Positions 13,720 to 60,995 of a stretch of DNA of 64,000 nt are shown here, in pieces. The stretch lies in IMG/VR virus record IMGVR_UViG_3300027819_000006; one strand, written 5' to 3'. The position numbers and the translations under genes were made by a program. Origin of the DNA: a virus. Lineage: Duplodnaviria > Caudoviricetes. Positions within the stretch are counted from its first letter, which is position 1, and each line of letters starts with the position of its first letter. The notes beneath the pieces were generated by a model. It did not search any database. It worked only from the letters and a program-made list of their open reading frames with translations, and was not told where the DNA came from.

Positions 13720-16037
13720 TTGTTTCCGTTTAAAAGATTATCTATGTTCATTATTGAAAAATCAGCTTGATCTTGGGTATATTTCCATGTTTTGAATCCC
13801 AACATTATTTCATTCTTATCATTTTTGTAAAATCTTATTAAATACAATCCATTCAATATCAAATTTTTTATGAATGAATACAATCCTGTAAATATTGGAA
13901 ATGACAATTTTGTATTATTCATATCACTTACTTGAATAAATGCCATATCATTTTTGTTTTTATCTTTCATTTCTCTTTTACTATCTATTTTTACCACTAC
14001 ATATGCTTCCTCATCTTTTGAATTTTGAAATTCTTCAAATTCACATATATTTAAATCTTTAAAAAATGAACATGATGTTTTATGTATTTCATAAAATTCT
14101 ACAATTTTTTTGGCTTGTTTCATCACTTTTACTTCACTTTGTTTGTTTATGAATAAAACATTGCCATACAATTCTTCCTCAAAAATTGATAGTTCATCAT
14201 TAGTGAATTCTTTTACAGCTAAATTATCAGCATCTTTTTCAAATCTATCATGATTTGAAATATATCTTTTTTTTCTTTTTTCATTGTTTTCTGAATAAGA
14301 TGAACCATATAACTCTAATTCATGTATTAATTTATTTCTATTTTCAGTCCCATGTAAAGAATCAAATGCACCAAGTTTAATCAAATTTATGATATTTTTA
14401 TTACCACATTTTAAATTTCTATACAAAAAGTCTCTGAAAGATTTATAATTACCATTTTTTTCTCTATCTTCTATGATAACTGTAGGAGATTTTTCTCCCA
14501 TGCCCTTTATTTTGCTAAATGGTAATCTTATAGAATTTTGTTCAATACTAAATTCTAAAAATGAATTGTTTGTATCCGGTTGTAATATATTAATTTTAGT
14601 ATTTCTTATTTCTTTTACAGCTGTAACAAAATCCTCTTTACCACTATATGATAATGTAGCTGTATAAAATTCAAGCGGATAATGTGTAGCAAGATATGCT
14701 GTTTGATATGAAATCATGGAATAGCTAAAAGAGTGGGCCCGATTGAAAGAGTACCCTGCATGATTCATTATTTTTTTCCACAAATCTTCTGCAACTTCCT
14801 TTTTACATCCATTAACAATTGCATTGCTTACAAATTTATTTTCAAACTCTTTCCATTCTTTGTGAACTTTTTCCATGTCTAAAGACTTGCTTCTTTTAAC
14901 AACAGATTTTCTAAATGCATTTATTTCTGGCCAGGTAAATCCGCCCAATTCTTTACATAAAATCATAAAATCATCTTGAAAACATACAATAGAATATGTT
15001 TCTTTTAAAACTTTTTCTATAATTGGATGTTCATATGCAATCAACTCAGGACTATGTTTTCCTTTTGCATATTCATCCAGCATTCCAGATCTTAATGGAC
15101 CAGGTCTATATAATGCAGCTATAACAGCAATGTCTACAAAACAATCAGGTATTATTTTTTTTGCTAATTTTCTAATACCATTCTCTGTAAATTGAAATAT
15201 GCCACAAAAATTTCCATCTTGAAAAACATGTTTAAAAACTTGTTGATCTTTTATGTCTATATTATTTGGATGAAATCTTTTTACTATTTCTTTGTAGTCA
15301 ATACATTCTTTTTTTGATATTAATCTATATGTATGGTCCAAAACTCTTAATGTACTTAATCCCAACACATCAAATTTTAAAAATCCAAATTCAGACAATG
15401 TTTTAGATGCTACACCTTCAGTATAAGCAGTTTGCATCACTCTTTTACCATCATCTCCAGCAGTAGATTGTAATGGCATTTTTTTATATAAATCATCAGC
15501 AATACATATACCAGCAGCATGTTTACCCAATGATCTATTTTTACCAAACAACACTTTAAATGTTTCTTCAATACCATCAGCAGATTTAACAAAATTAACA
15601 AATGTTGGTGAATATTCTGACAATTCATCAAATCCTATTTTAATCGTAGATTTGTCTTGATCGTTGTTGTCATGATATATTTCAGATAATTCTATAGAAA
15701 TATTTTTTGTAATTTTATTCATTTCTTCAAATGAACGTCCATATATTCTACCAATATCTTTTACTAAGTTTCTATAAGAAAATGTACCATATAAACTTAC
15801 TTGAGCAACATTATCTTCATGATATCTTTGTTTTAGATATGTTTTTATTCTATCTGGATATTCCCAATCCATGTCGATATCTGGAAGTTCTGAATTGTGT
15901 GAAATTATATATGTATTTCCGAGTTGAGATATTTGATATGAATGGACATTTTCAATTTCTAAATCATATACAATTCCATCATAATCTATTTCTTCTATAG
16001 ATGAAACTTTATGAAAATTTACATTTTCAATATCCAA
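13716..16037 (-). CDS. dnaE: DNA polymerase III alpha, C-terminal part, with N-terminal C-intein
   Basis: ELPDIDMD, GKHAAG, LKFDVLGL, ALYRPGP, YSFNRAHS; preceded by ...VYDLEI...ISHN/S. Confidence 0.95.
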   Translation of the reverse strand: MDIENVNFHKVSSIEEIDYDGIVYDLEIENVHSYQISQLGNTYIISHNSELPDIDMDWEYPDRIKTYLKQRYHEDNVAQVSLYGTFSYRNLVKDIGRIYGRSFEEMNKITKNISIELSEIYHDNNDQDKSTIKIGFDELSEYSPTFVNFVKSADGIEETFKVLFGKNRSLGKHAAGICIADDLYKKMPLQSTAGDDGKRVMQTAYTEGVASKTLSEFGFLKFDVLGLSTLRVLDHTYRLISKKECIDYKEIVKRFHPNNIDIKDQQVFKHVFQDGNFCGIFQFTENGIRKLAKKIIPDCFVDIAVIAALYRPGPLRSGMLDEYAKGKHSPELIAYEHPIIEKVLKETYSIVCFQDDFMILCKELGGFTWPEINAFRKSVVKRSKSLDMEKVHKEWKEFENKFVSNAIVNGCKKEVAEDLWKKIMNHAGYSFNRAHSFSYSMISYQTAYLATHYPLEFYTATLSYSGKEDFVTAVKEIRNTKINILQPDTNNSFLEFSIEQNSIRLPFSKIKGMGEKSPTVIIEDREKNGNYKSFRDFLYRNLKCGNKNIINLIKLGAFDSLHGTENRNKLIHELELYGSSYSENNEKRKKRYISNHDRFEKDADNLAVKEFTNDELSIFEEELYGNVLFINKQSEVKVMKQAKKIVEFYEIHKTSCSFFKDLNICEFEEFQNSKDEEAYVVVKIDSKREMKDKNKNDMAFIQVSDMNNTKLSFPIFTGLYSFIKNLILNGLYLIRFYKNDKNEIMLGFKTWKYTQDQADFSIMNIDNLLNGNK
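15894..16037 (-). other. Split intein C-terminal fragment (48 aa)
   Basis: Block F VYDLEIENVHSY; block G HN followed by Ser+1. Confidence 0.9.
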
Positions 16038-17166: not shown

Positions 17167-17445
17167 TTATTTTTTTACCTCAACTAGATAATCGTTTAAT
17201 GTGATATCACATGCTAATTTGTATTCAATTTTATCTTTATTATATACTAATAATCTATGATTCTTTGTACATATTATAAAATCATCATGATATTTTATCT
17301 TCAAAAGCTTTTCTTTCTTGTTGTATTTAAAAACATTTTTTACTATATCTTCACTATTTATATTTTTTACAATGTCATTCTTAATTACTTTATTAATTTG
17401 TTTTACAGAATCATTCATCATTATTTTTGTAGTTGGTACCAAACA
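17167..17445 (-). other. Split intein N-terminal fragment (92 aa)
   Basis: Block A CLVPTTKI; block B CTKNH. Confidence 0.9.
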
Positions 17446-18774
17446 TCTACCTGGACTTAGAAATCGTTCAAACATAATATCATATTTAATAGGATCCAAA
17501 GCTATTATATCTAACAAATGAAGCAATAAAGATCCCCCACCTGATCCTCTTCCGGGTCCTGCTAATTGATTCTGTAAACCATATTTATAAATATCATAGA
17601 TTATATAAAAATATGTTCCCAAATTTCTTTCTTGTATTGTACTTATTTCAGTCTTTAATCTATCTACATATACTTTGTTTACATGTAAATTTCTATCTTT
17701 CAAATTTTTTATAGCAACTTTAGTCAAAATTTGCATACATTCTTCTTCAGACAACTCAATATTGTTTTCATCATATACAACAGGTATTTTTAAAGATCTG
17801 TCTAAATGTATTGTGTCTATGATAGTAGATAGTTGGAATGAGTTATCTATGGCTTCTTCTACATTTATCTTGTTTATATCTTTTGAAAATATACTAGCAG
17901 AAGATAGTATTTCTTCTGCACTCTTCAAATAAAGATTTTCACATTTAAATTCATCATTAACAAGTGTTTCATTATCTAATTTTGTTTTTTCTAGTTCTTC
18001 ATCTGTCATATTCATCATTTTATTACCCTCAAGCATCTTAAGTATATCATAAATTTTATGATGCTCTTGTTTAATATAATGAGAATCTGTAGTAACTATA
18101 TAAGGTATTTTTAAAAATTTATTTATTTTCAACAATATCTTGTTGTATGTATCTTGCCATGGTATTTCATTAAATTGTAATTCTAAAAAGTACCTATCTC
18201 CAAATACACTTTTCCACCATTCTACTTCTTTCACAACATTATTTATATTTATATTTTTGCCATCTGTAGAAGCAATTCTACTAATTGGTCCTGCAATACA
18301 AGAGCTTGTAGTTATTATACCTTCATTGTATTTTTCTAGTAATTTTTTGTCTATTCTTGGTTTTCTATAAAATCCATATTTATGTGATAAAAAATTGAGT
18401 TGAAATATATTTTCCAACCCAACATTATTTTGTGCCAATAATACTACATGTGCATAACTATTTACCTTTTTTCTTCTACCTTTTAATTCTTCTTTGCTTA
18501 AAGTTTCTTTTAATTCATCTAATTCTTTTCTATCATTTGCATTTTTTTCCAAATCATTTACTAAATATGCTTCAATACCAAAAATGTGTTTAGTTACAAA
18601 ATTGTTCTTTTCTGCAGCTGTATAAAAATCAGCTATACCATTAAGATTACCATGATCTGTTAGTGCAATTGCATCTATATTTTTATCAATAGCAGTTTTT
18701 ATAATTTCTGCAGGTTTTGCAAGTCCGTCCTGAATACTTGCATCTGAATGATTGTGAATAGATGCATATTTCAT
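17167..18774 (-). CDS. dnaE: DNA polymerase III alpha, N-terminal part (PHP domain), with C-terminal N-intein
   Basis: HNHSDAS, ALTDHG, GPGRGSGGGSLL, FERFLSPGR, then CLVPTT. Confidence 0.95.
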   Translation of the reverse strand: MKYASIHNHSDASIQDGLAKPAEIIKTAIDKNIDAIALTDHGNLNGIADFYTAAEKNNFVTKHIFGIEAYLVNDLEKNANDRKELDELKETLSKEELKGRRKKVNSYAHVVLLAQNNVGLENIFQLNFLSHKYGFYRKPRIDKKLLEKYNEGIITTSSCIAGPISRIASTDGKNININNVVKEVEWWKSVFGDRYFLELQFNEIPWQDTYNKILLKINKFLKIPYIVTTDSHYIKQEHHKIYDILKMLEGNKMMNMTDEELEKTKLDNETLVNDEFKCENLYLKSAEEILSSASIFSKDINKINVEEAIDNSFQLSTIIDTIHLDRSLKIPVVYDENNIELSEEECMQILTKVAIKNLKDRNLHVNKVYVDRLKTEISTIQERNLGTYFYIIYDIYKYGLQNQLAGPGRGSGGGSLLLHLLDIIALDPIKYDIMFERFLSPGRCLVPTTKIMMNDSVKQINKVIKNDIVKNINSEDIVKNVFKYNKKEKLLKIKYHDDFIICTKNHRLLVYNKDKIEYKLACDITLNDYLVEVKK

Positions 18775-35318: not shown

Positions 35319-35912
35319 CTAAAATTGTTTAATATATGTGAATGATGCTCTTCTAAGTACTTTGTCAGCATAATTTGTAGTGCTAAATTTGTTTCCTTTA
35401 TTGTATCTCTCTAATGCTCTTACTAGATTATTGTTTTCTATTTTCAGACACCACTCTAAATGATTGATACCTGCTTTCAGATTTTCTTTTGTATTGTACA
35501 GATCATAACCTCTTACTCCATATATTTCAGCTGTAGCAGGTTTTACTTGCATCAGACCACGAGCATTTTTATTAGATTTACTATTTGTATTGAAATCTGA
35601 TTCTATGCTGATAATGCTGAAAACTATTGCAGGATTGATTTTCTTGTTTGTAGACATAAAATAGATGTATATAGCAAGAGTAGTATCAATTTTAAATTCT
35701 TTGGCATAAAGTTTAGATTTATTTATATGTTGTTCGAGTATTTTTGTTCTATGTTCTATGTCCTGTATTTTAGAGTTCAGTTCTGATATCTTTGTATTAT
35801 TTTTATCGATAATTTCTAATTTCTTTATGTAGCTCAAGCTACACACCATAAAGACAAAAATAATAAATACAGATAGAGAAATCTTTATAGTGAATAGAGC
35901 TTTAAACAGCAT
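35319..35912 (-). CDS. Membrane-anchored lytic transglycosylase (SLT)
   Basis: N-terminal TM helix and coiled coil; IESDF, ARGLMQV, ALERYNKG. Confidence 0.85.
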   Translation of the reverse strand: MLFKALFTIKISLSVFIIFVFMVCSLSYIKKLEIIDKNNTKISELNSKIQDIEHRTKILEQHINKSKLYAKEFKIDTTLAIYIYFMSTNKKINPAIVFSIISIESDFNTNSKSNKNARGLMQVKPATAEIYGVRGYDLYNTKENLKAGINHLEWCLKIENNNLVRALERYNKGNKFSTTNYADKVLRRASFTYIKQF

Positions 35913-36636
35913 TTTCTAGAGTAATAAAAAAATCTTTTTCTAAATTTAAATTAGAAGCATGACAAATTCCAGAGCCATTAACAATAGCTAAACGTCTAGC
36001 CTTTACATCAGAAATCCATTTAGGATTTGCAGTTTCTGCTCTTTTAATAGCTATTATAGTAAGTTTTTGAACTTCATCAGTTATATTCTGTTTTACAAAA
36101 GTTTGCAATATATCTAATTTCATTGTATCAGAAATTCCACCTTGCTGTGTTCTCAAATCGAAGAACATCGCTGCCGCTCTTTGAGACTTAACCTGGTATA
36201 TTGGCATCATAGCCAAAGCTTTATCAAATACATTTTTAGCAACTTTCAACTGAATTTGTTGCATTTCATTAGTCTGACCTAATTTATAGAATCTATCTTT
36301 CCATTCTGGTAATATTTTATTATTTGTTTGTATTGCAGCTGACCAAGCTACTTGTGATTGTATATCTGTTTTATTCAACATCTCTTTAAAAGTAGCCGAA
36401 CCATTGCCAAAAATATTATCTACTATAGCACTATGACTCTGAATCATTTCTTTTAAAAGTGGTTGTAATGATCCTTGTCCTAAACAAAATTGTAAACATC
36501 CAAATGAAAAACCTTGTCCGTCAAAATTTCCACTCATGCCACTATAACTTTCAAGTGGCATTTTACCTGTCTCTATAAAACTTGTAAGAGCTACACACTT
36601 CTCTAATAATGTAGAGTCTTTATTTAATCTATTCAT
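35902..36636 (-). CDS. Lysozyme-like peptidoglycan hydrolase (putative endolysin)
   Basis: FIE...YSGMSGNFDGQGFSFGCLQ pattern; adjacent to SLT; ATG at 36636 follows a GGAG RBS. Confidence 0.55.
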   Translation of the reverse strand: MNRLNKDSTLLEKCVALTSFIETGKMPLESYSGMSGNFDGQGFSFGCLQFCLGQGSLQPLLKEMIQSHSAIVDNIFGNGSATFKEMLNKTDIQSQVAWSAAIQTNNKILPEWKDRFYKLGQTNEMQQIQLKVAKNVFDKALAMMPIYQVKSQRAAAMFFDLRTQQGGISDTMKLDILQTFVKQNITDEVQKLTIIAIKRAETANPKWISDVKARRLAIVNGSGICHASNLNLEKDFFITLENAV

Positions 36637-37477
36637 ATAATTCTCCAAAGTTTATTAACATCACTTTCCCATATTCTAACTAATTTATAACCATATTTTT
36701 TAGCTAATTCATTTTTTAATTGATCTATTTCTATTTTTATTTTCTGAAATTCGTTTACTGGTCCATTTGGATAATATTCAGGATTACAATGATGATAATT
36801 GCCGTCTACTTCTACTAGTATATTAAAATCTTGTAAATAAAAATCATAATATCTGTTTTCGATCTTGAATTGATTTTCATACCTAATATTACTTTCTATA
36901 TTTTTTCTACTGATTCTTCTACTTTTGAAGTTCTTCTATGCCAATCTTTAGCTACTTTTTCTTTCCACATTTTTTCAGCTATTTCTATACCAAAACTTTT
37001 AGCCCAAAAATCTTTGACTGTTTTGCCATACATCACATTCTTTGAACCTTTTTTATCATCTGACATTTTTAGCAATCTATCATCTGTATTCTTATTTAAC
37101 CCGTCATTCCAGTTTTTACCACCATTTTCATAAAATAAAATCATGCCTGCAGAAGTTTTATTTCCATGTATTTTTACTCTCTCATCTGTTTCTTTTGTAA
37201 GACCTTTATTCCAAGCACCCGATTTGACAAAACCAATTTTTAAAATGCTATTACGACATCCATAACATCTATTATTAGGTCCTTTCACTTCTTTATTACA
37301 GTCATTTTCTATACATTTATATTTATCTAATTTCAGAATTTCAAACCAATATTTTTTAGAATTTACCTTATGTTTTGCTCCAACATGACCAAATAAAGCA
37401 TTATAGCTTTTGAAAACTTTCTTGCAAATAAAACATGATGGTAGTGGATTATTACTTTTATATTCACTTATATTCAA
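36633..37477 (-). CDS. Zn-finger/NUMOD3 + Vsr endonuclease (frameshift near 36900)
   Basis: WNKGLTKET and WNDGLNKNT repeats; the shifted frame continues YYDFYLQD..LVEVDGNYHH...LVRIWE...LWRII*. Confidence 0.8.
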
Positions 37478-37497
37478 TCTATTTCTCCTATAATAAA

Positions 37498-37583
37498 AGC
37501 CAAGCAATTGTAATCTACAATAGACTATGAATCTAGTAGTTGCTTGGCTCAAACTATTGGTTAAGTTTATTGTAGATTACAAT
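37498..37583 (-). promoter_or_regulatory. Structured two-stem leader, copy 2
   Basis: Inverted repeats 37498-37507/37540-37549 and 37507-37522/37568-37583. Confidence 0.75.
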
Positions 37584-40052: not shown

Positions 40053-41237
40053 CTATTTGCAGCTGCTTTCTTTGTCAGAGGGATTATAAACTCCTCTGTG
40101 CAGAATGTTTAAAGCAGCATTATAGTCTGCATCTAAACTTAGACCGCATTCCAGACATAAAAATTTATCTAATTTCCTATTTTCTTTATGTTTGAATCCA
40201 CATGAAGAACATTCCTGACTAGTATAGAAAGAAGAAACTTTCTTCAACTCTATACCCTGTTCTTCACACATCGACTGTAATTTTGAAATAGTTTTTGTAT
40301 AAGACCAATATTGCATTTTATTATTCATTTTCTTAGAATATTTTGATTTGTGTTTTACATTTTTCAAATCTTCTAAAACAACAATGGAGTTATTATAAAA
40401 ATCAATTTTATTGCATATTTCATTGATCTTATTATCTTTAAAAATAAGATATTGCTTATAATTTATAGACCCTCGTTTCATATTTGATAATTTAGTATAC
40501 AATTGTTTCATTTCTACACCATAGACATCATTGTTTGAAGAAACTAGAAGCTTATCATACCCGATGTCAAAAGCAACAGCAGCTTGCTGTTGTTTCAGCA
40601 TTATTTCTTTTTCATAAATAAATGTAATATAAAAATTACCATGTATTTTTCTTAGCAATATCGTATTTTTTCTATTCCAATTTTTGTATTTTAAAGATTG
40701 TTTATGTTGTTTGATAGGTAGATTAATTTTAAAAGCTCTTCTTTTGCTTTTTAAATATGGTAATTTTATGCCTATAAATTCATCAAAATGAGATGAAGAT
40801 TTATCATAACTTATAATTCTATAATCCATATTTATGCATATGTTTTTTATATTGATTCGTATTCTTGAAAATATATGATTTAATCGAAGCTCTGAAAATC
40901 TTTTACTCAGAAATTTTAACTGTCTATTATTTTTAGCGAAATATTTATAGCATTTTTTATATCTACTATATCTTTTATTTCTAGCATATCTAATATTAGA
41001 GCGTATTATTTCAGAAGCTTGTTTATGTATTATCTGTTTCCATCTTGAGTGTATTATTATGTTTGAGCTAACAGATTCAAAAAATTTAGCACTATTTAAG
41101 TCTGGTTTTTGCTTCAATATTTGTTCTATATAAAATATAAGATCTGTTTTATAGTCTTCAAAAACTTGCTCTAGCTGCTCTATCTTATTCTTATTAGAAA
41201 ATTTTAAAATGTGAGTGCTGCTTCTTTTTATAATCAA
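40053..41237 (-). CDS. tnpB: TnpB / Cas12f-like RNA-guided nuclease
   Basis: RuvC-I AFDIG, RuvC-II VLEDL, Zn finger CSSC..CLEC, RuvC-III DADYNAALNI; no tnpA nearby. Confidence 0.9.
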   Translation of the reverse strand: MIIKRSSTHILKFSNKNKIEQLEQVFEDYKTDLIFYIEQILKQKPDLNSAKFFESVSSNIIIHSRWKQIIHKQASEIIRSNIRYARNKRYSRYKKCYKYFAKNNRQLKFLSKRFSELRLNHIFSRIRINIKNICINMDYRIISYDKSSSHFDEFIGIKLPYLKSKRRAFKINLPIKQHKQSLKYKNWNRKNTILLRKIHGNFYITFIYEKEIMLKQQQAAVAFDIGYDKLLVSSNNDVYGVEMKQLYTKLSNMKRGSINYKQYLIFKDNKINEICNKIDFYNNSIVVLEDLKNVKHKSKYSKKMNNKMQYWSYTKTISKLQSMCEEQGIELKKVSSFYTSQECSSCGFKHKENRKLDKFLCLECGLSLDADYNAALNILHRGVYNPSDKESSCK

Positions 41238-41363: not shown

Positions 41364-42977
41364 CTAAGCATCTATTATGGCATCTAAAAAATATTTTGGA
41401 AATAAATTTTTGTTCATTTTTAGCATATTATCGAAACAGGAGTCTAGAATGTAAGTTTTAGCATAATCATTTTCACTCCTTATAGATCTACCATAAGACT
41501 GTAATATTTCTGCTACAGATTTCCATTGATACCAGTCAGGCATAGTTTTCAATCTTTTCTTTACTTTTGGTGATGCTAAATTTGGAAATGGCACTTTGAC
41601 TATAATCTGAAATCTAGACAAGTCGTCTTTCAAATCTATACCATTTGTCATAGACGGAGATACAATCACTGAAGCATTTGTTGATTCATAATGCTCTTGT
41701 AGCTTGTCTTCTCTGTCATCTATATCGTGAAATATCAATCTATCATTATCAATACTGTGCATAATGATATTAGATATTTCGTAGCTATTAGTATGAATTA
41801 TGCCTTTTTCATTTTTGTGCTTATTCAAAATTGTATTTATAACTTGAGGTAAGTCTTTATAAGTATCATGTTTCTCTCTGTATGACAGCTTACCGATATC
41901 TAAATTGTACACCAATCTATTCTTGACTTCAAATGGAGAATCTAGACTCATATATGCTACATCTTGTTTTAGACCCATGTAATTTTTGAAGAAATTTTTA
42001 TTAAGAATAGTACCAGACATGAATATTACATGATCATAGTTCTTCCATATCATTTCTAGATGATCTTTGCCCCAGACTAATTCTGTTTTCAACACAGTCA
42101 AACCATCTTTATCTTTCTCTTTATAAAATACCCATTTTTCTGTATTATCTTCAGATTCATTTATAAATCTGTTAAATTTACAAATTACTTTATCTAAAAA
42201 TGAATAATCTTTTAATATTTTCAATTTTACATTTTGCACTGCAGCTAACTTGCATTGTTCTTTCAATTCTTTGTATCTAATATTTAAAACTGGTATTAGA
42301 TCATCAGTTACAAATTTAATATAAGTTTCTATTGATCCAATTCTATCAAGCTTAGACAGAAGTCTTGCATTTTTTATACCCCATCTGTTCATAGAACTTC
42401 TAGATATTGTGGAAGAAATGAATTCACAGAACACTTCTTCAAATGAATGTGCTTCATCTACGAATAGAACATTAGAACATCTTTTTTCTATAAATGTTGG
42501 AACATATATTAAATATGATAAGTAGACATGAAAATTTGCTAAACCCACTTTAGCATTTAAAAATTCTTCATATGCAGCTTTAGATGGACAGAAACTGCAT
42601 TCTGTTTTATTGAGCTTGTTTAAATCTTGTCCATCATCACAAGTCAGATTCCATTTTTCGCAGTTATAGTTATTCTTACCTTTGATACTTCTGATGAAAT
42701 CAAAATCAGCAGTATATTGATTTTGTAGAATTTTAGTATTAGTTAGAATATCAAATTTAGCATTTTTATCTATATTCTCAACATACCACTTCATTGCCAT
42801 GACAGCAAAATAACTCTTACCACACCCTACAGAAACGTCTAATAATAAAAATTTCTTCTTAGAATTGATTGACTCTTTGAAGAAATTTAACATCTGGTCT
42901 TGTTGCTGTCTTGGATTATGCTTTAGAGTGATCATAGAAAATAAATGAATGCACCTATTATAGGAATTTTGCTCCAT
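41364..42977 (-). CDS. DinG/XPD-like SF2 helicase
   Basis: VGCGKS, VDEAH, FMSGT, IIHTNSY, GIDL, KVPFP, QSYGRSIR. Confidence 0.88.
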   Translation of the reverse strand: MEQNSYNRCIHLFSMITLKHNPRQQQDQMLNFFKESINSKKKFLLLDVSVGCGKSYFAVMAMKWYVENIDKNAKFDILTNTKILQNQYTADFDFIRSIKGKNNYNCEKWNLTCDDGQDLNKLNKTECSFCPSKAAYEEFLNAKVGLANFHVYLSYLIYVPTFIEKRCSNVLFVDEAHSFEEVFCEFISSTISRSSMNRWGIKNARLLSKLDRIGSIETYIKFVTDDLIPVLNIRYKELKEQCKLAAVQNVKLKILKDYSFLDKVICKFNRFINESEDNTEKWVFYKEKDKDGLTVLKTELVWGKDHLEMIWKNYDHVIFMSGTILNKNFFKNYMGLKQDVAYMSLDSPFEVKNRLVYNLDIGKLSYREKHDTYKDLPQVINTILNKHKNEKGIIHTNSYEISNIIMHSIDNDRLIFHDIDDREDKLQEHYESTNASVIVSPSMTNGIDLKDDLSRFQIIVKVPFPNLASPKVKKRLKTMPDWYQWKSVAEILQSYGRSIRSENDYAKTYILDSCFDNMLKMNKNLFPKYFLDAIIDA

Positions 42978-45333: not shown

Positions 45334-46320
45334 AAAATCTTCAATTCTTTTAATTTATTTTTATCCCATAGTTCGATTGGAATTTTGATACACTCCTGTA
45401 ATAGTGCAGGATATTTTTCACTACCATCAAACCATCCTTTAACCTCTATTATTTTTAATATTTCCTTCTATATCATAAACTATAAAATCTGGTAAATAAC
45501 TTCTATCTCTTATTATACATATTCTAAATTGTTCATATTTCCAAATAATGTTATTATTGTCGAAATATTTAGCGACTTTTGCTTCCCAAGTAGATTTAAA
45601 ACATATACCATTATAATATATTTTCTTTCCATGAGCTCTTGGTTTGCCAAATCTGGGATTTTTAATCCCTTTGGCCACTCCCTTTGATTTTCTTGTATTG
45701 GAAACACTATTTGCTAATTTTATCAGCCTAACATCTGTTTCTTTAGTTAGCCCTTTTTGCCAAGATGTCCAGCCATTAGCTACTAATTCTTTTTTTCTAT
45801 CAGACATTCTTTTTTTAGTTTCTTCAGAATGATTTCTACCATAAAAAGAAGCATTCTCGCCTGTACAGGAACCTGTCAATATTTTAGTCATGCATCCTTT
45901 TTCATGCCATTCTCTAAATTTTTCATCTGTATCTTTAGTCTTTCCTTTTTGCCAATTCACTATATTTCCTAAAGCATACCCCTCTTTTATAACTTTCGAC
46001 ATATTGCTTCTATATTCTTCAGAAAATATTCGATGAGAATTTCTACAACCATAACACATATTGCACTCTGCTTTAACTTCATTAAGACATCCTTGAACAG
46101 CGCAATAATATGTTAAAGAAGCTACACATTCAGAGCATCTATCTCCTCTATATCCAGTTACTTTGCTTAATATATCTCCACAAGTAGTGCATCTTTTTCT
46201 GTTTTTATTATATTCTGCTGCTTCACATTCTTTGCAAAATTTACTTTTTCTTCTACCATCATAAATATTGTTGCATATATCAAAATTTGAACATTTCGTT
46301 ACTCTCATCTTCTTCTCCAA
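45330..46320 (-). CDS. Cys-rich/NUMOD3 + PD-(D/E)XK endonuclease (frameshift near 45445)
   Basis: WQKGLTKET repeats; FKSTWE...YLPDF, then a shifted frame IIEVKGWF. Confidence 0.78.
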
Positions 46321-46415: not shown

Positions 46416-46449
46416 ATATAAATATACTCTTGGAGAAAAATAGTACATT

Positions 46450-47000: not shown

Positions 47001-48713
47001 TCACTTTCTAATTGAGAATTCATACAGTTTATTTTCAGAGTAGACTACTACTTTCTGTCCATTATTGCTAATTATCATATTGTCTAGCAGCTTGCTGTCT
47101 TTTATGACTATGTTTCTATCATCTGACATGGCAGAATAGAATATTTCTATTGCTTTATCTTCTATTTGAGAAATAGCTATTCCAGTATCGAGTACAGTGA
47201 AATTAACATCTTCAAAATCAATGTCTTCTACTAACTGAGATTTATATGTTTTGAATTCTTCATTGAATTTTACTGTCAGTTTATATTTAATTCCATCCTT
47301 GAACATTATAAACATAATAATATTCTTACATTTTTTAGCATTCAATATCTTATAACCATCTAATTCTTTGACATGCAAAATAGAGCAGCTAGATCTATTA
47401 TTGAAATAGTACGGAATACTCAAATGTATTCTGCCAAATATATCTGTAGCGCAGAATTCACTATAGATAGTTGTAGCATTTTCTAATATATCCCAACTAT
47501 TCTTCACATTTGGAATGATTCTTCCATTTATTTCTTTGAACTGTATTTCTGATAATTTTCCAGCACTTATAGCATATAGTCTGTTTTCAGATACAAATTT
47601 CTTGTTCACTGCAATAAATACATTGTTTAGCATTTTCTTTTTGTTGCAGTTAAATTCTAATAGTCTATTCTTTACGCTAACAGCAATCCATACATCTTCA
47701 TCTAAAAATATTATATGATCATCTTTATTGCAGTTTGTAGTTATATGATTGAACAGAAATTTGTCTGACATGAATACAGCATCTCTGTTAAAAACATTTT
47801 TATAGAATGTAATATCTGATCCATATGTTTTTAATAGCTTGAATTCAAATTTATCACTACCAGTAATTACTTGAGTTGAAGATCTAACCACTGTAAATGC
47901 ACCGGTTACATATGGAGGCGCTAATCTTTCTCCTTTTTCAAATATTTTTAGAAACCATTCTTTGTAGTCTCCAGGAATGTGTGAAAAATTTCTAACATTT
48001 GCAGGTACAGATACATCTTTATTGAAGACAGAGATATTAGACTTCATTCTGCCCTCTAAATCTTTTTTCTGAAATTTTGGATGTGTTCCTTTATATGGAT
48101 GAATGCCTACAAACATCTGACAAGATATGATTCCAAAGCTGAACCAGTCAGATTCAGCATTGAATTGTTTAGCATGCCAGTCTCTGATAGATGGCATAAT
48201 TACAGTAGCAGGATAATGTGGAGTCTGATATGAATCTACATCTATGAAATATGGAATTTTAAATTTTTCATCTACTAAAAAATTGAAATCATTACAATCT
48301 ACAATCAGACATTTCTTGTCATGAATGAATTGAATAGTAGATTGCATCTCTTTTGTAAGTTCTAATATAATATTGGCATTTATACTATTCTGTGTCCAAA
48401 ATGAATTAGCAAATAGCTTGCACAGAGGCAGAGTATTTTCTACATAATCCATAGTAAAGCCAATATATTTGCTTTTTGAATCAAATATTTGATCTTTAGG
48501 GATTAGAACATTATTTTTATTTAAGCTTTTTAATTCTTGTATTTTATCAATAGCTATAGCATGTTTAGCATCTTGATATATTTTATAGACTACTCCATTC
48601 TTAGAATATAAATCTGCCTCTCCCCCAGCTCCAAGGAAATCGTTTTGAGAAAGAATAGTTTTAATTCCAGCTACAGAAACACTTAATTTGCTATTCATCT
48701 CTATTCTCCACAA
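47001..48713 (-). CDS. Ser/Thr protein kinase-like protein with beta-rich C-terminus
   Basis: LGAGGEA, VYKIY, IVDCNDFNFLV, FIDVDS, SDWFSF, GIHPYKG. Confidence 0.85.
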   Translation of the reverse strand: MWRIEMNSKLSVSVAGIKTILSQNDFLGAGGEADLYSKNGVVYKIYQDAKHAIAIDKIQELKSLNKNNVLIPKDQIFDSKSKYIGFTMDYVENTLPLCKLFANSFWTQNSINANIILELTKEMQSTIQFIHDKKCLIVDCNDFNFLVDEKFKIPYFIDVDSYQTPHYPATVIMPSIRDWHAKQFNAESDWFSFGIISCQMFVGIHPYKGTHPKFQKKDLEGRMKSNISVFNKDVSVPANVRNFSHIPGDYKEWFLKIFEKGERLAPPYVTGAFTVVRSSTQVITGSDKFEFKLLKTYGSDITFYKNVFNRDAVFMSDKFLFNHITTNCNKDDHIIFLDEDVWIAVSVKNRLLEFNCNKKKMLNNVFIAVNKKFVSENRLYAISAGKLSEIQFKEINGRIIPNVKNSWDILENATTIYSEFCATDIFGRIHLSIPYYFNNRSSCSILHVKELDGYKILNAKKCKNIIMFIMFKDGIKYKLTVKFNEEFKTYKSQLVEDIDFEDVNFTVLDTGIAISQIEDKAIEIFYSAMSDDRNIVIKDSKLLDNMIISNNGQKVVVYSENKLYEFSIRK

Positions 48714-49501
48714 TAAATAGCTGCTACAGACACATCGTCATAGTTGACAATTCCTTCTTTTTCATAATCTTTCATCAGTTTATACATTCGTCTTTTGACA
48801 AATTCACCAGTGTGATTCTTGAATGCTATAACATCTTTTACTACTCTGTCTATTGGAATATTTTCACCAGTGCTTTTGTTGAAGAAAGAAGATAATCCAT
48901 CAGAAGCAATGCAGACATATTTCAGATTTTTATATTGATGATCTCTAATCGTAAAAGTATAATCAAACGCATCGTTAAAATATTTGATCTCTTCTTCTAT
49001 TTTGTTATTGAAATATAGTTTTTCACTTTTTATAGAAACACTAGTTAACGAAGCTATATACTGATTTTGTCTATCTATATCGAAATAGTAACTTAAATAG
49101 AATGGAGCATTGTTAGAATATTTCAGTTCATAATGATATGTTTCATCATTTCCGTAACAAAATATTAGATTACCATCGCCAAAAATTTTTACATCTACAA
49201 GATCATCATTTACCTTACAAATTATTAGCGTTGCATCTAAACTTTCTTGCTCTAATCCTAATCTATCAATTGTTTCTTTACAATGTTCAAATACAGATAT
49301 ATCAAAATCATCATCTCTAACATGTCTTAGTACTTCTTTTTTAAAATGTTGTAACAACACTCTTGCTCCAATATCTGTATTTGGAGAAGATGAACAACCA
49401 TCTCCAATCATTACAAAAGGAAATGGTTTCATTACAGATAGAGCATAATCTTGACAGATGTGATGTTGTCTAGTTCCTGTGAAGAAACAGTCAGAGTTCA
49501 T
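48701..49501 (-). CDS. PP2C-like phosphatase
   Basis: ICQDYA, GDGCSS, LDATL, FGDG, IASDG, DDVSVA. Confidence 0.85.
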   Translation of the reverse strand: MNSDCFFTGTRQHHICQDYALSVMKPFPFVMIGDGCSSSPNTDIGARVLLQHFKKEVLRHVRDDDFDISVFEHCKETIDRLGLEQESLDATLIICKVNDDLVDVKIFGDGNLIFCYGNDETYHYELKYSNNAPFYLSYYFDIDRQNQYIASLTSVSIKSEKLYFNNKIEEEIKYFNDAFDYTFTIRDHQYKNLKYVCIASDGLSSFFNKSTGENIPIDRVVKDVIAFKNHTGEFVKRRMYKLMKDYEKEGIVNYDDVSVAAIYCGE

Positions 49502-49503
49502 AG

Positions 49504-49851
49504 TTAATATGTTTCTTTATAGAGATAGCTCATAACATCAAGTAAAGAATGAATGACACCTCTTAATCTGTCAATTTCATTTTCTAATTCTCTATCAGAT
49601 CCATACATCATATCTTGAAGATTGTTTCTATCTCTTTCTACTGTCTCAATAATATCTACTAACTCTTCTTTCAATATATTATCTAACTGTGTTCTGTCTA
49701 TATTGATTCTTAGATGCTCTGTTTTATGCTTATCGACAATATTTTTGAAAGTTCTTTTTCTATTTCTTTTTTCATAGTCTTTTTCATTTTCTCTTGGAGC
49801 AGTAGCAGCTAATAGAGCATCTATTTCATCTTGACTTAGAATATCTGGCAT
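49504..49851 (-). CDS. Hypothetical protein with a FliM/FliY-like N-terminal peptide
   Basis: Starts MPDILSQDEIDALL, followed by a coiled coil. Confidence 0.6.
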   Translation of the reverse strand: MPDILSQDEIDALLAATAPRENEKDYEKRNRKRTFKNIVDKHKTEHLRINIDRTQLDNILKEELVDIIETVERDRNNLQDMMYGSDRELENEIDRLRGVIHSLLDVMSYLYKETY

Positions 49852-49860
49852 TCAATGCTC

Positions 49861-51034
49861 CTAAAATGTTAATTGCTGTGATTTGTTGTTTATAATACAA
49901 TTTAAATCTTCTTTAAATAAAATATGATATATTTTAGATTCTTTTTCATATAAACGCAAAAAATTTGCTATTTTTACTTTGCTGTTTTCATATGTATAAA
50001 TTGATTTAACTTCTTCTATTCTTATCAAATTATCATTTTCGTCATATATGAAAAAATCGGGAGTATATGTAGTTCCATCTAGTTTATAAGTTATTTCTTC
50101 ATATTTTGATATAGAATCTAAAAATTGAGCTCTTTCTAGTTCATAAGATGATTTTAAATATGTTTTGTTATATATTTTGTCCATCTATCAGTATTAGTGT
50201 ATTTATCATGCCACATTAATAAAGCTGTTTTCAAACCATATTTTTCAATCCAAACATCGAAAACAGATTTACCATACATTCCATTATTTTTACCATAAGT
50301 TGGGCAAGTTTCGCCTGTCAGACCTAATCTGTACGGAATAATTTCTCCTGAAGCATATTTTATTTTTAATGCGTCAGAAATATTTTTTTACATTCATCTG
50401 ATAGAGGAATTCCAAAACTGTGTGATAATTCTCCAGTAAGACCTTTATTCCACTGAATTCTGCCATTAGCAAATTGATCTTTTAACGTTATAGATACATT
50501 TTCTGACTGTTTTCTAACTCCGTCGCTAGTTTCTTTAGTGAGACCAGTATTCCACTGAATTCTTTCATTGGCAAACTGATATTTTAAAGTTTCTGAAATC
50601 TGCTGCTTCTCTTCTTCAGTGTGTAATCTTCCAAAATTATGGCATAGTTCTCCAGTCAATCCATAATTCCATGCATTTTCTCCTCTAGTTTTTTCATTTC
50701 TGTCTTCCCATCTCCCACTTCCTTCTTCTTCTCCATATTTTTCTATTATTACATTTTTTATTCCTCTACAAAAGACACTATGTTCTGACATATATTCAGA
50801 TAATTTGTAGTTATTACACTTCCGACATAGTTCTGCACTTCTGTTCTTTTTGTTTCCACATTTGCAAAATTTTAAAGATAGATAATACGATAAATTAGTG
50901 TTATTTTTTATTTCGATACTGAGATCTTCTATTTTATTAATGTTTTTATCTATTTTATAGTCACATTCTTTACAAACATTAGTAATATTGTTGAGCGATA
51001 ATTTGTTTGTGTTGCATATGCTGCATAATTTCAA
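49861..51034 (-). pseudogene. NUMOD3 + PD-(D/E)XK endonuclease with several frameshifts
   Basis: WNxGLT(G/K)E repeats in 50366..51034; LKSSYE...YTPDF...IEEVK in 49861..50184; shifted frames link the two. Confidence 0.75.
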
Positions 51035-51046
51035 GTTATTTCTCCA

Positions 51047-51128
51047 AATAATAAAGCCTATAGTAATTGGTACAGAAATAATATTGCTATTAAGTCTTCA
51101 CTATAGGCTTTATTATTTCTGTACCAAT
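51047..51128 (-). promoter_or_regulatory. Structured two-stem leader, copy 5
   Basis: Inverted repeats 51047-51064/51100-51117 and 51066-51080/51114-51128. Confidence 0.75.
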
Positions 51129-51146
51129 ATAAATATATTAAGAAAA

Positions 51147-51908
51147 TTAAAATACAAGCTGTTGCGATTTATTAGGATTTCCCAAGCTTGTACTTGTACT
51201 TGAGATACTGCGAGAAATGAATGCACACAATTTAGCCAATTTACCAGGACTAGCCTCACCAACATCAATGTACTGAGTCAAATTAGCTTCATCTTTAAAC
51301 TTATTCAGCACGTAACTACAAATTCCATCTTGAGTGTTAATTCCTACTAGAACTGTGATCATTGACTCAAGCTTCTCTTCTTTTGTCACTTTTGCAACCT
51401 GATCTCTAATCATAGATGGAGTAACTCTTGAAGCATTATCTACACCATCAGTGATAATAAACATAATAGCATTTACAGTATAGTCTTGATCAGATAGCAA
51501 CTGTCCATATTTTACAGTGGAAGCTACTGCATCAAATGTGGCATCATATAGAGAAGTCATTCCTCCGCAGTTGAAAGGAAGATAATCTTTATCTACATCA
51601 ATTTCATTTAAATTCTTGAATCCATGAATCTCCTTTACTCCAATTCCAGAATTGAATTGGAGAGCTCGTACAAGAATATTTTCAGACTTTGGTGCTTTCT
51701 TGCAAGAATTGACTGCACTTTTAAGTGCATCTAAAAGATTGTTTGCAAATGGTTCTACTGAACCTGTAATATCTGTTACGATTGATACAAGAGTATATTC
51801 TGTTTCTGTTAGAGCATCAGGTCTGACAGCAGAGAATGTAAATGATCCATCTGCAGCTGTGAAATTCTGCATGCTACCATCTGCATTTTGATTAAGGAAC
51901 TTAGGCAT
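51147..51908 (-). CDS. von Willebrand factor A domain protein (TerY-like)
   Basis: DITGSV (MIDAS-like), GGMTSLYDA, FIITDG. Confidence 0.85.
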   Translation of the reverse strand: MPKFLNQNADGSMQNFTAADGSFTFSAVRPDALTETEYTLVSIVTDITGSVEPFANNLLDALKSAVNSCKKAPKSENILVRALQFNSGIGVKEIHGFKNLNEIDVDKDYLPFNCGGMTSLYDATFDAVASTVKYGQLLSDQDYTVNAIMFIITDGVDNASRVTPSMIRDQVAKVTKEEKLESMITVLVGINTQDGICSYVLNKFKDEANLTQYIDVGEASPGKLAKLCAFISRSISSTSTSLGNPNKSQQLVF

Positions 51909-52284
51909 TTTGTTCTTCTCCTTTTTGTTTATCTGCTAGTTCAATAGCTTTTAAATAGCGGTTAATAGCTTTATCTGAGTCTAATAAATATGAAGTATGT
52001 GAATCTTTGTCATATTGAATAGACACCGCTTCTACTTCATATTTATTAACTTTTACTGCTCCATCATTCGATGAATAATCATTTAAATTCTTATTCAAGA
52101 CTGTCATAGCATACAAATTCAAAGGATCTAGTCTACCATTTTTATTTGTAAATGTTCCAACTAGTAGTTTTTCATGTTTAGGATCAAGATTTTGTGGAAG
52201 TCTGTCATCCCTAACATCTTCTAGAAACTTGATCACCTTATTCCAATTCTTGTGTAAATTCTTTACTTTCATTTTTAGCTCCAA
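51901..52284 (-). CDS. hypothetical protein (paralog of next ORF)
   Basis: EKLLVGT..NKN...DP..L and YLL...KAI.R.LK shared with 52275..52607. Confidence 0.6.
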   Translation of the reverse strand: MELKMKVKNLHKNWNKVIKFLEDVRDDRLPQNLDPKHEKLLVGTFTNKNGRLDPLNLYAMTVLNKNLNDYSSNDGAVKVNKYEVEAVSIQYDKDSHTSYLLDSDKAINRYLKAIELADKQKGEEQNA

Positions 52285-52607
52285 TCATTTTTAAAAGAAT
52301 CTATTACTTTTAACATTCTCTTGATAGCTTTTTCTCTTGGTAATAGATAGGGCATCTTTGTCATACCATCATAATCATGGAACATACTTGAAAAATCAAA
52401 TTCAAAATCTACTATATGAAATGATTCATTTCTAATGTCTTCATAACTATATCTCATCTTTTCATGAAGAAATAGACCAATTGGATCTACTTTATTGTTT
52501 TTATTGCACCATGTCCCTACAAGAAGTTTTTCTGGCATAGAATCATCATTCTGAACTTTTACAAGAAAATTTCTGAATTGCTTTAGAGTTACTCTTTTAG
52601 ATTTCAT
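52275..52607 (-). CDS. hypothetical protein (paralog of previous ORF)
   Basis: Same shared motifs. Confidence 0.6.
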   Translation of the reverse strand: MKSKRVTLKQFRNFLVKVQNDDSMPEKLLVGTWCNKNNKVDPIGLFLHEKMRYSYEDIRNESFHIVDFEFDFSSMFHDYDGMTKMPYLLPREKAIKRMLKVIDSFKNDWS

Positions 52608-56058: not shown

Positions 56059-57312
56059 ATGTATATTTATAATATGGAAACAAAAATGCTAATAGTAGAG
56101 AAACATATAATAGATAAAAATCATAAACAATGGAAAACTATTGATAATTTATGCTTGTTATCTAAAAATCTATATAATCGAGCTCTGTTTCTTATAAATG
56201 AACACTATGAAAAAGAATGTAAATTTTTAAGATACAGCAAGTTAGATAAATATATTAGAGAAACTGACAAAGAACTGTATTGTGCTCTGCCAAACAACAC
56301 ATCTCAAAGAATAATAATCAAACTAGATCAGAATTTCTTAAATTTCTTTGCTGCTTTAAGATCTTGGAAAAAAGATAAGTCAAAATTTTTAGGATGCCCA
56401 AGACCTCCAAAATATAAAGAGAAAAATGGTAGAAATTTACTTATATTTACTACTAGACAAGCCAAAATTAAAGAAGGATATATTCATTTTCCTAAAAGGA
56501 CTGGTTTGCAGCCCATTAAAACAAATGTGAAAAAACTCTGTCTAGTCGAAATCGTACCTCAAGCATCTTGCTATATAGTGAGTATAATGTATGAAAAAGA
56601 AATTTTAGATCATAAATTGAATAAAGATAATTACTTAGGAGTAGACTTAGGAATAAATAATTTAGCAACAATTACTTCAAATCAGCCTGGATTAAGTCCA
56701 ATTCTGGTTAATGGTAGAATTTTAAAATCTATCAATAGTTACTACAATAAGAAAAAAGCTAAACTTCAGTCTAGTTTAGAGAAGAATCATAAAAAAAAGA
56801 CTAGTAATAGAATTAAAAAATTAGCTCTAAAAAGAAATAATAAAATAGAATATTATATGCATCATGTTTCAAAATTTATTGTTACTCACTGTATACAAAA
56901 CGATATTAGCAATATAGTTATAGGTTATAATGAGGGTTGGAAACAAGAAGTGAATATGAGTAGAAAAAATAATCAAAATTTTACAATGATTCCATTCTTA
57001 AAGCTAATAAATCAGATCAAATATAAAGCTAAATTAAACTCTATTGAAGTTATAGAAATGGAAGAATCTTATACTTCTAAATGCTCAGCATTAGATTTAG
57101 AATCTATTGAGAGACATGAAGAATATATTGGAAAAAGAGTAAAAAGAGGTCTGTTCCAATATTCAAAAGGTCTCATTAATGCTGACGTCAATGGTTCTCT
57201 AAACATTCTCAGAAAAGTAATTGGCAATGATTTTATAAATCTAGTCAATATAGGCTGTGTTAGTCAACCAGTGAAGATCGATTTTTCACAAACAAGAGCA
57301 ATCTTGAGCTAA
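56059..57312 (+). CDS. tnpB: TnpB (IS605/IS1341 OrfB family), the only long plus-strand gene
   Basis: SKNLYN, PPKYK, LGVDLGINN, IVIGYN, EESYTSKCS, NADVNGSLNI. Confidence 0.92.
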   Translation: MYIYNMETKMLIVEKHIIDKNHKQWKTIDNLCLLSKNLYNRALFLINEHYEKECKFLRYSKLDKYIRETDKELYCALPNNTSQRIIIKLDQNFLNFFAALRSWKKDKSKFLGCPRPPKYKEKNGRNLLIFTTRQAKIKEGYIHFPKRTGLQPIKTNVKKLCLVEIVPQASCYIVSIMYEKEILDHKLNKDNYLGVDLGINNLATITSNQPGLSPILVNGRILKSINSYYNKKKAKLQSSLEKNHKKKTSNRIKKLALKRNNKIEYYMHHVSKFIVTHCIQNDISNIVIGYNEGWKQEVNMSRKNNQNFTMIPFLKLINQIKYKAKLNSIEVIEMEESYTSKCSALDLESIERHEEYIGKRVKRGLFQYSKGLINADVNGSLNILRKVIGNDFINLVNIGCVSQPVKIDFSQTRAILS

Positions 57313-59598: not shown

Positions 59599-60995
59599 GT
59601 GAATTAATTCCACCTAAAGGATGGAATCTTCCTGCTTCATAGAAGCTGACTTATTTTTGATACTTAAAGTATCATCAGCAGAGGTCAATTTCTCCACAGG
59701 CTTAAAGTCCCTATGTTCCATAGGTATATAAGATTGATTATTTTTACCAACCAATAAAATTGTTTTTGCAGCTTTTATATCTCTATCTTCTTCGAAATTA
59801 CATACATCACATTTGAAAATTCTATCTTTAAGAGTTAAATTTTCATTTATTACACCACATTTATAGCACATCTTTGTAGTAGGGAACCATTTGTCTACAA
59901 TATAAACATTATTAGATGATTTTAATTTAGATTTTATTTTTCCAAGATAACTATGCTGTACTTGTTTCCCAAATAAACCTTTATGCCAACCTCTTAAATT
60001 CTCATCTTGCATAAAGACTCTTAAGTGATTTGTTAGAAGATAGTTTACTAATTTATTGGCAGCATCATTTTTTTTATTTGTTATTTTCTCATACTCTTTC
60101 TGAATTTTAATTCTCAGCTTATATCTATTGTTTGAGTTCTTTTTTGATTTTGCAAGTTTTCTTTGCAATCTTTTAAGATGCTCAGATTCTTCAATAAAGC
60201 AGTTGAAAATTTCACCCTCAGAAGTAGTAACATTGTTTTTGATACCAAAATCAAGACCTAAATCTTGTTTATTACAACAACTATTTAGTTTTTCAAATGT
60301 TACAAATTCAAAACATGTTAATTTTATATAATAACCAGAAGCTTTTTTTACTAGTTTAGCATTTGCTAAATCATAATTATCTTTAATTTGTTCTAATCCA
60401 TGAACTTTTAGAGGTTTCTTTATATTGAAAATCTTAATTTTATTTTTATTTATTATCTTATGTGTATTACCATATTGCGACAGTTCAATAGAGTTATATT
60501 CTCTTTTAAATTTAAGTTTACCGATTTTATGACCATTTCTTTTTAAAACAGATAAAGATTTTATATTTTGATAAACGAGTTTTATCAAATCTTGTTTACA
60601 TTTTGATGGCAGATATTTTAATTCTTTTTCAATGAACTTGTCTTTATATTTTACTAGTATGTTTTTTATTTTGTAGTTTACATCTGATATATTATCTTGA
60701 GCAAGAATATAATTGTACAACCATTTAGCTTCTACAAACCACATTTTTAATTGCTCTTCTTGTTGTTTGTTTAAAGATGATTGATCAATTTTAAGCTCAA
60801 AAACTTTGCATCGCTGAGATTGTCTTTTAATTCTTGTCTTTCTAAGAGATTCTTTGATTTTATTTCTTTTTGACTCATTCATATAGTTTAAATCTTATAT
60901 AGTTTTGTTTATATAAATATACATGAGAAAAATTAAAAAACATTCAAAAATTCATATTCCACATAAATGTCGGAATCTTTCTTTTTGAGAATTAC
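59599..60995 (-). mobile_element. Non-autonomous IS200/IS605-type element (tnpB only)
   Basis: Subterminal ATTCC...GGAAT hairpins at both ends; right end TTCAC; inserted 3' of TTAC with no duplication. Confidence 0.75.
59614..60882 (-). CDS. tnpB: TnpB
   Basis: AKWLYN, LGLDFGIK, FMQDE, PTTKMCYKC, CDVC, DRDIKAA. Confidence 0.9.
   Translation of the reverse strand: MNESKRNKIKESLRKTRIKRQSQRCKVFELKIDQSSLNKQQEEQLKMWFVEAKWLYNYILAQDNISDVNYKIKNILVKYKDKFIEKELKYLPSKCKQDLIKLVYQNIKSLSVLKRNGHKIGKLKFKREYNSIELSQYGNTHKIINKNKIKIFNIKKPLKVHGLEQIKDNYDLANAKLVKKASGYYIKLTCFEFVTFEKLNSCCNKQDLGLDFGIKNNVTTSEGEIFNCFIEESEHLKRLQRKLAKSKKNSNNRYKLRIKIQKEYEKITNKKNDAANKLVNYLLTNHLRVFMQDENLRGWHKGLFGKQVQHSYLGKIKSKLKSSNNVYIVDKWFPTTKMCYKCGVINENLTLKDRIFKCDVCNFEEDRDIKAAKTILLVGKNNQSYIPMEHRDFKPVEKLTSADDTLSIKNKSASMKQEDSIL

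Follow-up and report, generated by a model that had tools for sequence, protein, structure and literature searches.

Organization of the vWA locus

This report concerns the 3' end of a TerY/YegL-like vWA gene in a 64,000-nucleotide stretch of DNA, referred to here as the window, from the IMG/VR virus record IMGVR_UViG_3300027819_000006 (Duplodnaviria; Caudoviricetes). The local gene direction around the vWA locus is the minus strand, and all features of the locus itself are given on that strand. The vWA gene (51147..51908) is an intact open reading frame (ORF) of 253 residues that ends ...SLGNPNKSQQLVF-TAA and heads a triad of vWA, PP2C phosphatase and Ser/Thr kinase genes. The end of this gene is present twice. 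The upstream tail, NKSQQLVF plus TAA (AATAAATCGCAACAGCTTGTATTTTAA, 51147..51173), is joined to the vWA body directly before a nuclease cassette, and the downstream tail, NKSQQLTF plus TAG (AACAAATCACAGCAATTAACATTTTAG, 49861..49887), lies approximately 1.3 kb from the vWA end, in frame with the third piece of the nuclease. The cassette (49885-51146) sits between the vWA stop and the second tail. This arrangement is read below as a probable replacement of the gene end, in which the upstream copy would be the new tail and the downstream copy the old, stranded one.

Two copies of the vWA C-terminus

The two tails are identical at 7 of 8 residues, and 9 of their 27 bases differ. Six of these differences fall at third codon positions; seven leave residue or stop unchanged, and the remaining two lie in the lone V/T codon. 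The initial annotation, made from the letters alone, had given the two tail strings, their coordinates and the match of seven residues in eight, and had described the DNA differences as mostly synonymous; reading the sequence and its ORFs confirms all of these statements. When the eight residues before every stop were compared for all window frames of at least 50 codons, these tails, which lie in neighbouring ORFs, were the sole pair with at least six identities among 43,365 C-terminal 8-mer pairs. When nine substitutions were placed at random, only about 6 of 100,000 simulated trials retained 7 of the 8 residues. A chance match of the tails is ruled out by the pair comparison and the simulation together.

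The peptide itself is characteristic of the vWA family. Among the C-termini of 119 vWA homologs, the final residue is F or I in 116, L.F is found in 71 and the terminus SQ.L.F in 51, with exact SQQLTF in six and SQQLVF in one, and the same C-terminal conservation is seen in 80 IMG/VR loci with vWA relatives (L001-L080; P-numbers below denote protein homologs). On these counts both tails can be taken as canonical vWA ends, and the earlier assignment of the downstream peptide to the vWA C-terminus is borne out. On the other hand, the N-K ahead of SQQL, present in both window tails, is found in 0 of the 119 homologs. Since it is shared by the two copies and absent from the homologs, the copies appear to come from closely related alleles, and the small number of residue changes despite nine base differences points to divergence in separate lineages, with both copies selected as protein ends. 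As judged from the sequence, the tail copies are sister alleles from closely related lineages and not the product of a fresh duplication.

Other properties of the two copies are less telling. The upstream tail holds the only TCG codon of the vWA gene, and TCG accounts for 3% of Ser codons across the window's long ORFs; with only eight codons per tail, this rare codon in the upstream copy does not decide anything. In the composition profile, the nuclease domain has 20-25% GC vs 33-38% for the vWA gene, and no boundary is readable inside the vWA gene. None of the 80 related vWA loci shows a duplicated tail.

The tail is foreign to the nuclease

The downstream tail closes a 107-codon ORF (49861..50184) that ends ...EDLNCIINNKSQQLTF-TAG, and the AG of this TAG is shared with the AGGAG (49858..49862) of the next gene, an overlap that had already been pointed out. 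The junction between nuclease and stranded tail lies inside AACAACAAA, at about 49882-49890. A full HMMER search with the 107-residue ORF found 104 proteins, the best of them 59-67% identical; the nuclease domains of P0131 and P0132 reach 67%. The initial annotation had named, as the observation that would speak against it, homologous nucleases ending with the same peptide whatever their neighbour; the vWA motif occurs at the end of, or within, 0 of the 103 other homologs, and the claim stands. The aligned homologs stop 0-6 residues past a conserved ...ILF.EDL.. segment. The closest full-length relative, P0133 (328 residues), ends ...LHILREN and stop, which is aligned to ...LNCIINN of the window (last base 49885). 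This is exactly where KSQQLTF starts, which implies that the tail is foreign to the nuclease. The gene of P0133 is a 332-codon ORF in locus L081, one of the unrelated contexts in which intact, single-ORF relatives of the nuclease sit. The possibility that the tail is native to the nuclease family was rejected, as 0 of the 103 homologs carry it and the aligned C-termini end before it. In the AlphaFold (AF2) model of the 107-residue ORF, the mean predicted local distance difference test (pLDDT) score is 88, and residues 101-107 reach only 56, vs 84-97 for residues 31-100.

Domains and reading frames of the nuclease

The initial annotation spoke of one nuclease ORF fused in frame to the old vWA C-terminus. 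The single ORF has to be abandoned: the span holds three frames, namely a 222-residue ORF, a middle piece ending at 50154 and the 107-residue ORF. The in-frame fusion is correct for the 107-codon catalytic piece, which reads into the tail; a full-length fusion is not encoded, owing to two -1 frameshifts.

The first piece (50366..51034) has 222 codons and a TTG start at 51034, and it comprises a Cys-rich, zinc-finger-like region, whose Cys pairs are present in this ORF, and NUMOD3-type repeats. NUMOD3 (PF07460) scores 20.2 bits on this piece, just under the cut-off of 20.4, and a faint I-TevI zinc-finger match is found too. In relatives the same family scores 57.5 bits (P0131) and 28 bits (the paralog at 45439..46320 in the window), and homologs of the first piece with 332-377 residues carry NUMOD3. 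The piece is collinear with intact homologs and ends at a premature stop past an A7 run (50383..50389), where a -1 shift is needed to continue. The second piece (50154..50388) lies in the second frame, contains GKNNGMYGKSVFDVWIEKYGLKTALLMWHDKY and ends with TAA at 50154-50156; it aligns to P0131, P0136, P0137 and P0138, and its motif is also found in paralogs at 36.9 kb and 53.9 kb. A second -1 shift lies at 50172..50179, at or beside an A4 run (near 50175-50178) in ACAAAATAT. Both shifts are evident from the relatives. Residues 177-259 of P0136 match 50635-50384 and residues 284-326 match 50291-50175, in different frames, and residues 25-65 of P0138 end at 50172 in one frame while residues 67-170 begin at 50172 in the next. 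The intact relatives P0136 (427 residues), P0137 (285 residues) and P0138 (171 residues) are collinear with 50635-50384, 50291-50175 and 50172-49903, in one frame each.

The third piece (49885..50184) is the PD-(D/E)xK catalytic domain, with E29, P42-D43, E58 and K60 present. In the catalytic columns of 63 aligned sequences, E29, P42 and F44 never vary, whilst D43, E58 and K60 are found in at least 90%; the window copy has all of them. Stop codons stand right before the ATG at 50184 of the 107-codon piece, and no ribosome-binding site (RBS) for it is evident in the upstream sequence. The third piece matches phrog_190 (E 9e-7), and no Pfam family scores above threshold on it. Nearly all top structure matches of its model are PD-(D/E)xK nucleases; in a Foldseek search against the PDB, no match has an E-value of 0.001 or better, all E-values being 0.014 or worse. 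The model aligns to TnsA (Z 7.4), Vsr (Z 6.8), Bax1 (Z 6.5) and I-Bth0305I (Z 6.5), every Z being below 8. The E...PD...ExK motif and these best model alignments, all with Z below 8, are what the nuclease has in common with I-Bth0305I, TnsA and Vsr. What we claim is membership of the PD-(D/E)xK superfamily only, and not of the TnsA, Vsr or I-Bth0305I families.

Two -1 frameshifts over three frames imply that this is probably a decaying gene whose product is likely inactive. A/T homopolymer runs of at least 7 bases number 53 in the window, and 43 of them lie within long intact ORFs, so that wholesale homopolymer error is unlikely. Decay by frameshift is common among phage homing-endonuclease genes (PMC10448857). 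The paralogous nuclease at 45439..46320, a 293-residue ORF, is also frameshifted, just before the catalytic ExK. The region of this paralog (45334-46320, minus strand) encodes NUMOD3 and PD-(D/E)xK parts with a +1 frameshift ahead of IIEVKG, and its shifted frame overlaps an adenylosuccinate-synthetase-like gene via ATGA.

Promoter-like motif and leader of the cassette

The vWA gene had been described as ending just before the cassette promoter. TTCTTAATATATTTATATTG, which contains a promoter-like motif, begins six bases past the vWA stop. The motif, AATATATTTATATTG (51125..51139), is common to the nuclease cassettes of the window. It is found exactly at three minus-strand places, the others being 37580-37594 and 54397-54411, with a near copy at 46414-46428, and each of these precedes a nuclease-like ORF. 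Allowing up to 2 mismatches gives 9 matches vs 3.0 expected, and the core TATATTTATAT is invariant in 6 aligned leaders. A scan for sigma-70 promoters and intrinsic terminators gave none above the shuffled expectation.

The motif is followed by a leader (51042..51128) with two interleaved helices and then GGAG as the RBS (51042-51045). Helix A pairs 51111-51128 with 51066-51083, and helix B pairs about 51100-51118 with 51046-51064. The fold has an 18-bp stem, an energy of -32.6 kcal/mol and a z-score of -4.65, and inverted copies of AATAAAGCCTATAGT are present in the leader. The 3' part, ACTA.T.GG.TTT..TA.TTGGAGAA, is common to the leaders at 46.3 kb and 29.4 kb. A six-copy minus-strand repeat of another kind, TGTTTAC-N17-TTGTTTATATTTA, is located at 4972-5027, 31081, 34323, 39841, 58831 and 61125, and it is probably a promoter class different from the cassette motif.

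The vWA operon and its relatives

A search with the vWA protein gave 427 homologs with an E-value of 0.001 or better, the top ones being 55-58% identical over the full length. Its identity comes from homologs that are named VWA or YegL or carry PF00092/PF13519, and none of the Pfam vWA models reaches E 0.1 against the window protein. For the genes downstream, a Pfam search gave PP2C_2 (E 6e-7) and Pkinase (E 6e-8). The order vWA, PP2C, Ser/Thr kinase is found in the window and in most of the 80 IMG/VR phage loci, on contigs of up to approximately 600 kb. We take the triad to be of the TerY-P type, a name reportedly owed to Anantharaman et al. 2012. The triad is widespread among large uncultured phage contigs.

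In the window, the AGGAG overlapping the TAG of the downstream tail (49858-49862) serves a 115-residue gene (ORF 49504..49851), whose ATG at 49851 stands six bases past it. The PP2C phosphatase gene (48701..49501) comes next, followed by the Ser/Thr kinase gene (47001..48713). Homologs of the 115-residue protein are absent from all 80 related vWA loci. In the most compact of these loci (e.g. L015, L037, L080, L011 and L063), only 2-20 nt separate the vWA stop and the PP2C match. The downstream tail of the window keeps the compact stop/RBS junction typical of related vWA operons. The stranded tail thus abuts the RBS of the next gene, where the vWA stop normally lies, and this supports the downstream copy as the resident end. 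Across L001-L080, the vWA-PP2C and PP2C-kinase gaps range from 2 nt to >4 kb, which suggests that insertions often occur at both junctions. The ORFs 51901..52284 and 52275..52607, which immediately precede the vWA gene, are small, diverged tandem paralogs, approximately 40-60% identical over short stretches.

Parallel duplications at other loci

Similar layouts were found elsewhere. The last 56 codons (41364-41531) of a helicase gene (41364..42977) recur at 39884-40048 on the minus strand, behind a TnpB gene (40053..41237). The two copies share 72% DNA identity, and 29 of their 48 differences are at third positions; this locus is the same end-replacement layout with an RNA-guided nuclease. In contig L111, a 39-residue ribonucleotide reductase tail is repeated behind an HNH gene with 78% DNA identity and 18 of 26 differences at third positions, and the stranded reductase tail runs straight into the RBS of the next gene. 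A similar copy of the reductase tail lies beside an HNH gene in L151.

Several related arrangements were observed as well. At 35902..36648 (minus strand), a gene for 248 residues has approximately 37 residues of its N-terminal region repeated at 37656-37766 with 68% identity (tblastn E 5e-13), followed by a cassette with a NUMOD3/zinc-finger ORF (36896..37552) and a Vsr/DUF559-like frame (36633..36935); this copy looks like a replacement of the gene start. In L111 (2145-6105), intein-like ends divide the reductase gene into two halves; a nuclease that shares its PD-(D/E)xK family with the one at the vWA locus lies between them, and the HNH gene comes next. The DNA polymerase III alpha gene of the window is in two minus-strand pieces, an N-terminal one (17167..18774) with an intein-splicing-like end and a C-terminal one (13716..16037), with small ORFs between them. 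A 'fractured gene' that contains a split intein is a possible reading of this region (13716-18774). Besides the TnpB gene behind the helicase (40053..41237), two more are found at 56059..57312 (plus strand) and 59614..60882, making three OrfB_IS605 / Cas12f-like TNB genes within 64 kb.

A model for replacement of the gene end

Taking these observations together, we consider it highly probable that a free-standing homing-endonuclease cassette entered the 3' end of the vWA gene with a replacement tail and stranded the resident tail. Before the insertion, the vWA gene would have continued directly into ...NKSQQLTF-TAG, its stop overlapping the next gene's AGGAG, and the predicted empty site is the vWA body joined directly to AACAAATCACAGCAATTAACATTTTAGGAG. 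The free-standing nuclease gene would have entered approximately eight codons ahead of the old vWA stop. It would have consisted of a zinc-finger/NUMOD3 DNA-binding part and the PD-(D/E)xK domain, driven by the promoter-like motif and the interleaved-hairpin leader. The donor may have been a sister lineage that already had the cassette behind its vWA gene and whose end, NKSQQLVF-TAA, would now complete the resident gene.

The steps of the transfer can be proposed as follows. A double-strand break would have been made in the vWA 3' region, and repair would have copied the donor vWA end and the cassette, using homology on the vWA side. The far side may have been sealed by an illegitimate or microhomology junction, leaving the last eight codons of the recipient. 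The resident end would have been pushed downstream, where the nuclease frame presumably happens to read through to the old stop. The split, re-spelled site may shield carriers from renewed cutting. Later, the nuclease gene would have gained its two single-base frameshifts in A runs. Since the vWA C-terminal motif is strongly conserved, an insertion that brought no substitute tail would probably have been lost. The downstream copy is called the old, native one by its position.

Several points weigh against this model. The nuclease gene, being probably in decay, makes present mobility doubtful, and the frameshifts themselves come from one assembly, its two database records differing only in the translation of the TTG start. 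A blastn search of GenBank phages gave no close relative showing an empty or filled site, and searches with the vWA protein against IMG/VR and against the JGI metagenomes gave no close relative either; the exact 23-mer of old tail and RBS has no match in IMG/VR. The downstream copy is therefore the presumed native one, and the imported tract may extend into the vWA body. Only 8 codons are duplicated here, vs 39-56 codons in the other cases, and cassettes with the same leader elsewhere in the genome, e.g. at 46 kb, have no tail duplication. Finally, the homing role of the nuclease is a putative one, and its cleavage activity and target site are predictions.

Alternative explanations

The downstream tail could instead be the remnant of a second, tandem vWA paralog, of which only the final eight codons survived replacement by the cassette. 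More than one vWA gene can be present in TerY-type operons, a weak additional vWA match lies immediately upstream in L023, and the two ORFs upstream of the vWA gene in the window are tandem paralogs, so that local duplication occurs here. However, a single vWA gene is present in 79 of the 80 related loci, and the L023 paralog is only 25% identical. Moreover, the lineage-specific N-K and the agreement at 7 of 8 residues fit alleles better than old paralogs, and a deletion ending exactly at the nuclease end would be needed. We therefore regard this origin as improbable.

There is likewise little chance that the fusion is functional, the vWA tail having been selected on the nuclease as a docking peptide or for translational coupling of the downstream operon. 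Such a role would agree with a tail that is in frame, with an intact peptide and a stop overlapping the AGGAG of the next gene, and with a motif that is strongly conserved in the vWA family. On the other hand, the nuclease gene is broken twice upstream of the tail, which is carried by none of the 103 homologs and is poorly modelled, and the 115-residue gene has a strong RBS of its own. Because an in-frame reading has a prior of one in three and the other frames also stop soon, the in-frame fusion is treated as a scar: it is most likely a by-product of the junction and not a designed fusion protein.

A further possibility, to which we give equally little credence, is that the breaks in the nuclease gene act as a throttle, with slippage at the A7/A4 runs, in transcription or translation, occasionally yielding a full-length nuclease that ends in the vWA motif. 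The accompanying idea that this motif would then be a borrowed docking or coupling signal is just as improbable. The frameshifted paralog at 45439..46320 could be a hint of shared expression control for toxic nucleases, atop the two-state leader. If true, this reading would mean controlled production of full-length nuclease instead of decay.

A duplication made in place, either as a target-site duplication or by replication slippage, and followed by divergence within the genome, is still less likely. The copies do flank the insertion, as target-site duplications do. However, the DNA divergence is 33% with one residue change, whereas an untranslated or unselected copy would gather non-synonymous changes, and the longer duplications in the window show the same third-position bias. 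PD-(D/E)xK homing nucleases are also not known to produce duplications of at least 24 bp, which counts against this origin. Least likely of all is an assembly artefact joining two strain variants of the vWA 3' end around a strain-specific insertion: the sequence is of metagenomic origin and appears to go back to a single assembly, but the structure is coherent: vWA, leader and RBS are all undamaged, the old stop keeps its register with the RBS of the next gene, and analogous structures are found at other loci and in unrelated contigs.

Comparison with known systems

Read as an end-replacing homing element, the phage cassette may be a further case, by analogy, of a layout known from mORF hybrids and WHO elements. 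In the fungal mitochondrial mORF hybrids (Allomyces macrogynus atp6; Glomus sp. atp6, atp9, cox2 and nad3), an inserted C-terminus is accompanied by the stranded native one (Beaudet et al. 2013, PMC3630166). As in those hybrids, an endonuclease ORF lies near the 3' end of a conserved gene, the inserted in-phase C-terminus keeps the gene whole, and the native C-terminus is stranded downstream, the copies being dissimilar in DNA and near-identical in protein. The differences are also clear. The element resides in a phage, and its nuclease belongs to the PD-(D/E)xK/NUMOD3 type, not LAGLIDADG or GIY-YIG. The phage nuclease has its own promoter-like motif, leader and RBS and is not in phase with the host gene. 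Furthermore, only 8 codons are duplicated here, the nuclease frame enters the stranded tail, and the native copy is assigned by position only. For such hybrids, the mORF paper cites Paquin et al. 1994.

In Torulaspora and Lachancea yeasts, every integration of a WHO element replaces the 3' end of FBA1, with no intron or intein (Coughlan et al. 2020, PMC7282813). The 3' end of the target gene is replaced by a homing element in both systems. Unlike the phage cassette, WHO proteins are intein-like (LAGLIDADG) zinc-finger proteins and nuclear, and their allele-specific cleavage was shown experimentally, whereas the phage case is known from sequence alone.

In T4, one-sided, illegitimate double-strand-break repair is documented, with microhomology junctions if one flank is without homology (Edgell, Gibb and Belfort 2010, PMC2988022). 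Like the seg and mob genes of T4-like phages, the phage nuclease gene is intergenic and beside conserved genes, and the seg and mob genes spread by break repair with co-conversion of flanking DNA. The free-standing homing endonucleases of T4, in contrast, are GIY-YIG and HNH enzymes. The T4 review (PMC2988022) is silent on gene-end duplication, with 0 occurrences of the stem 'duplicat', and a literature search that took in few subscription journals turned up no report of a phage gene whose end is duplicated behind a homing endonuclease.

As a single small case with a decayed nuclease, the locus has its value mainly as one more documented example. Under the end-replacement model, a selfish nuclease can become established within the end of a conserved phage gene, with neither intron nor intein, by bringing a spare end. 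The stranded eight codons would fix the insertion point to a few bases and thus predict the location of the nuclease target, and the tails would show DNA exchange between two sister lineages of the 272-kb phage. Two more end duplications in the window and similar cases in unrelated phage contigs suggest that end replacement often contributes to gene-level mosaicism in large phages and has been under-reported.

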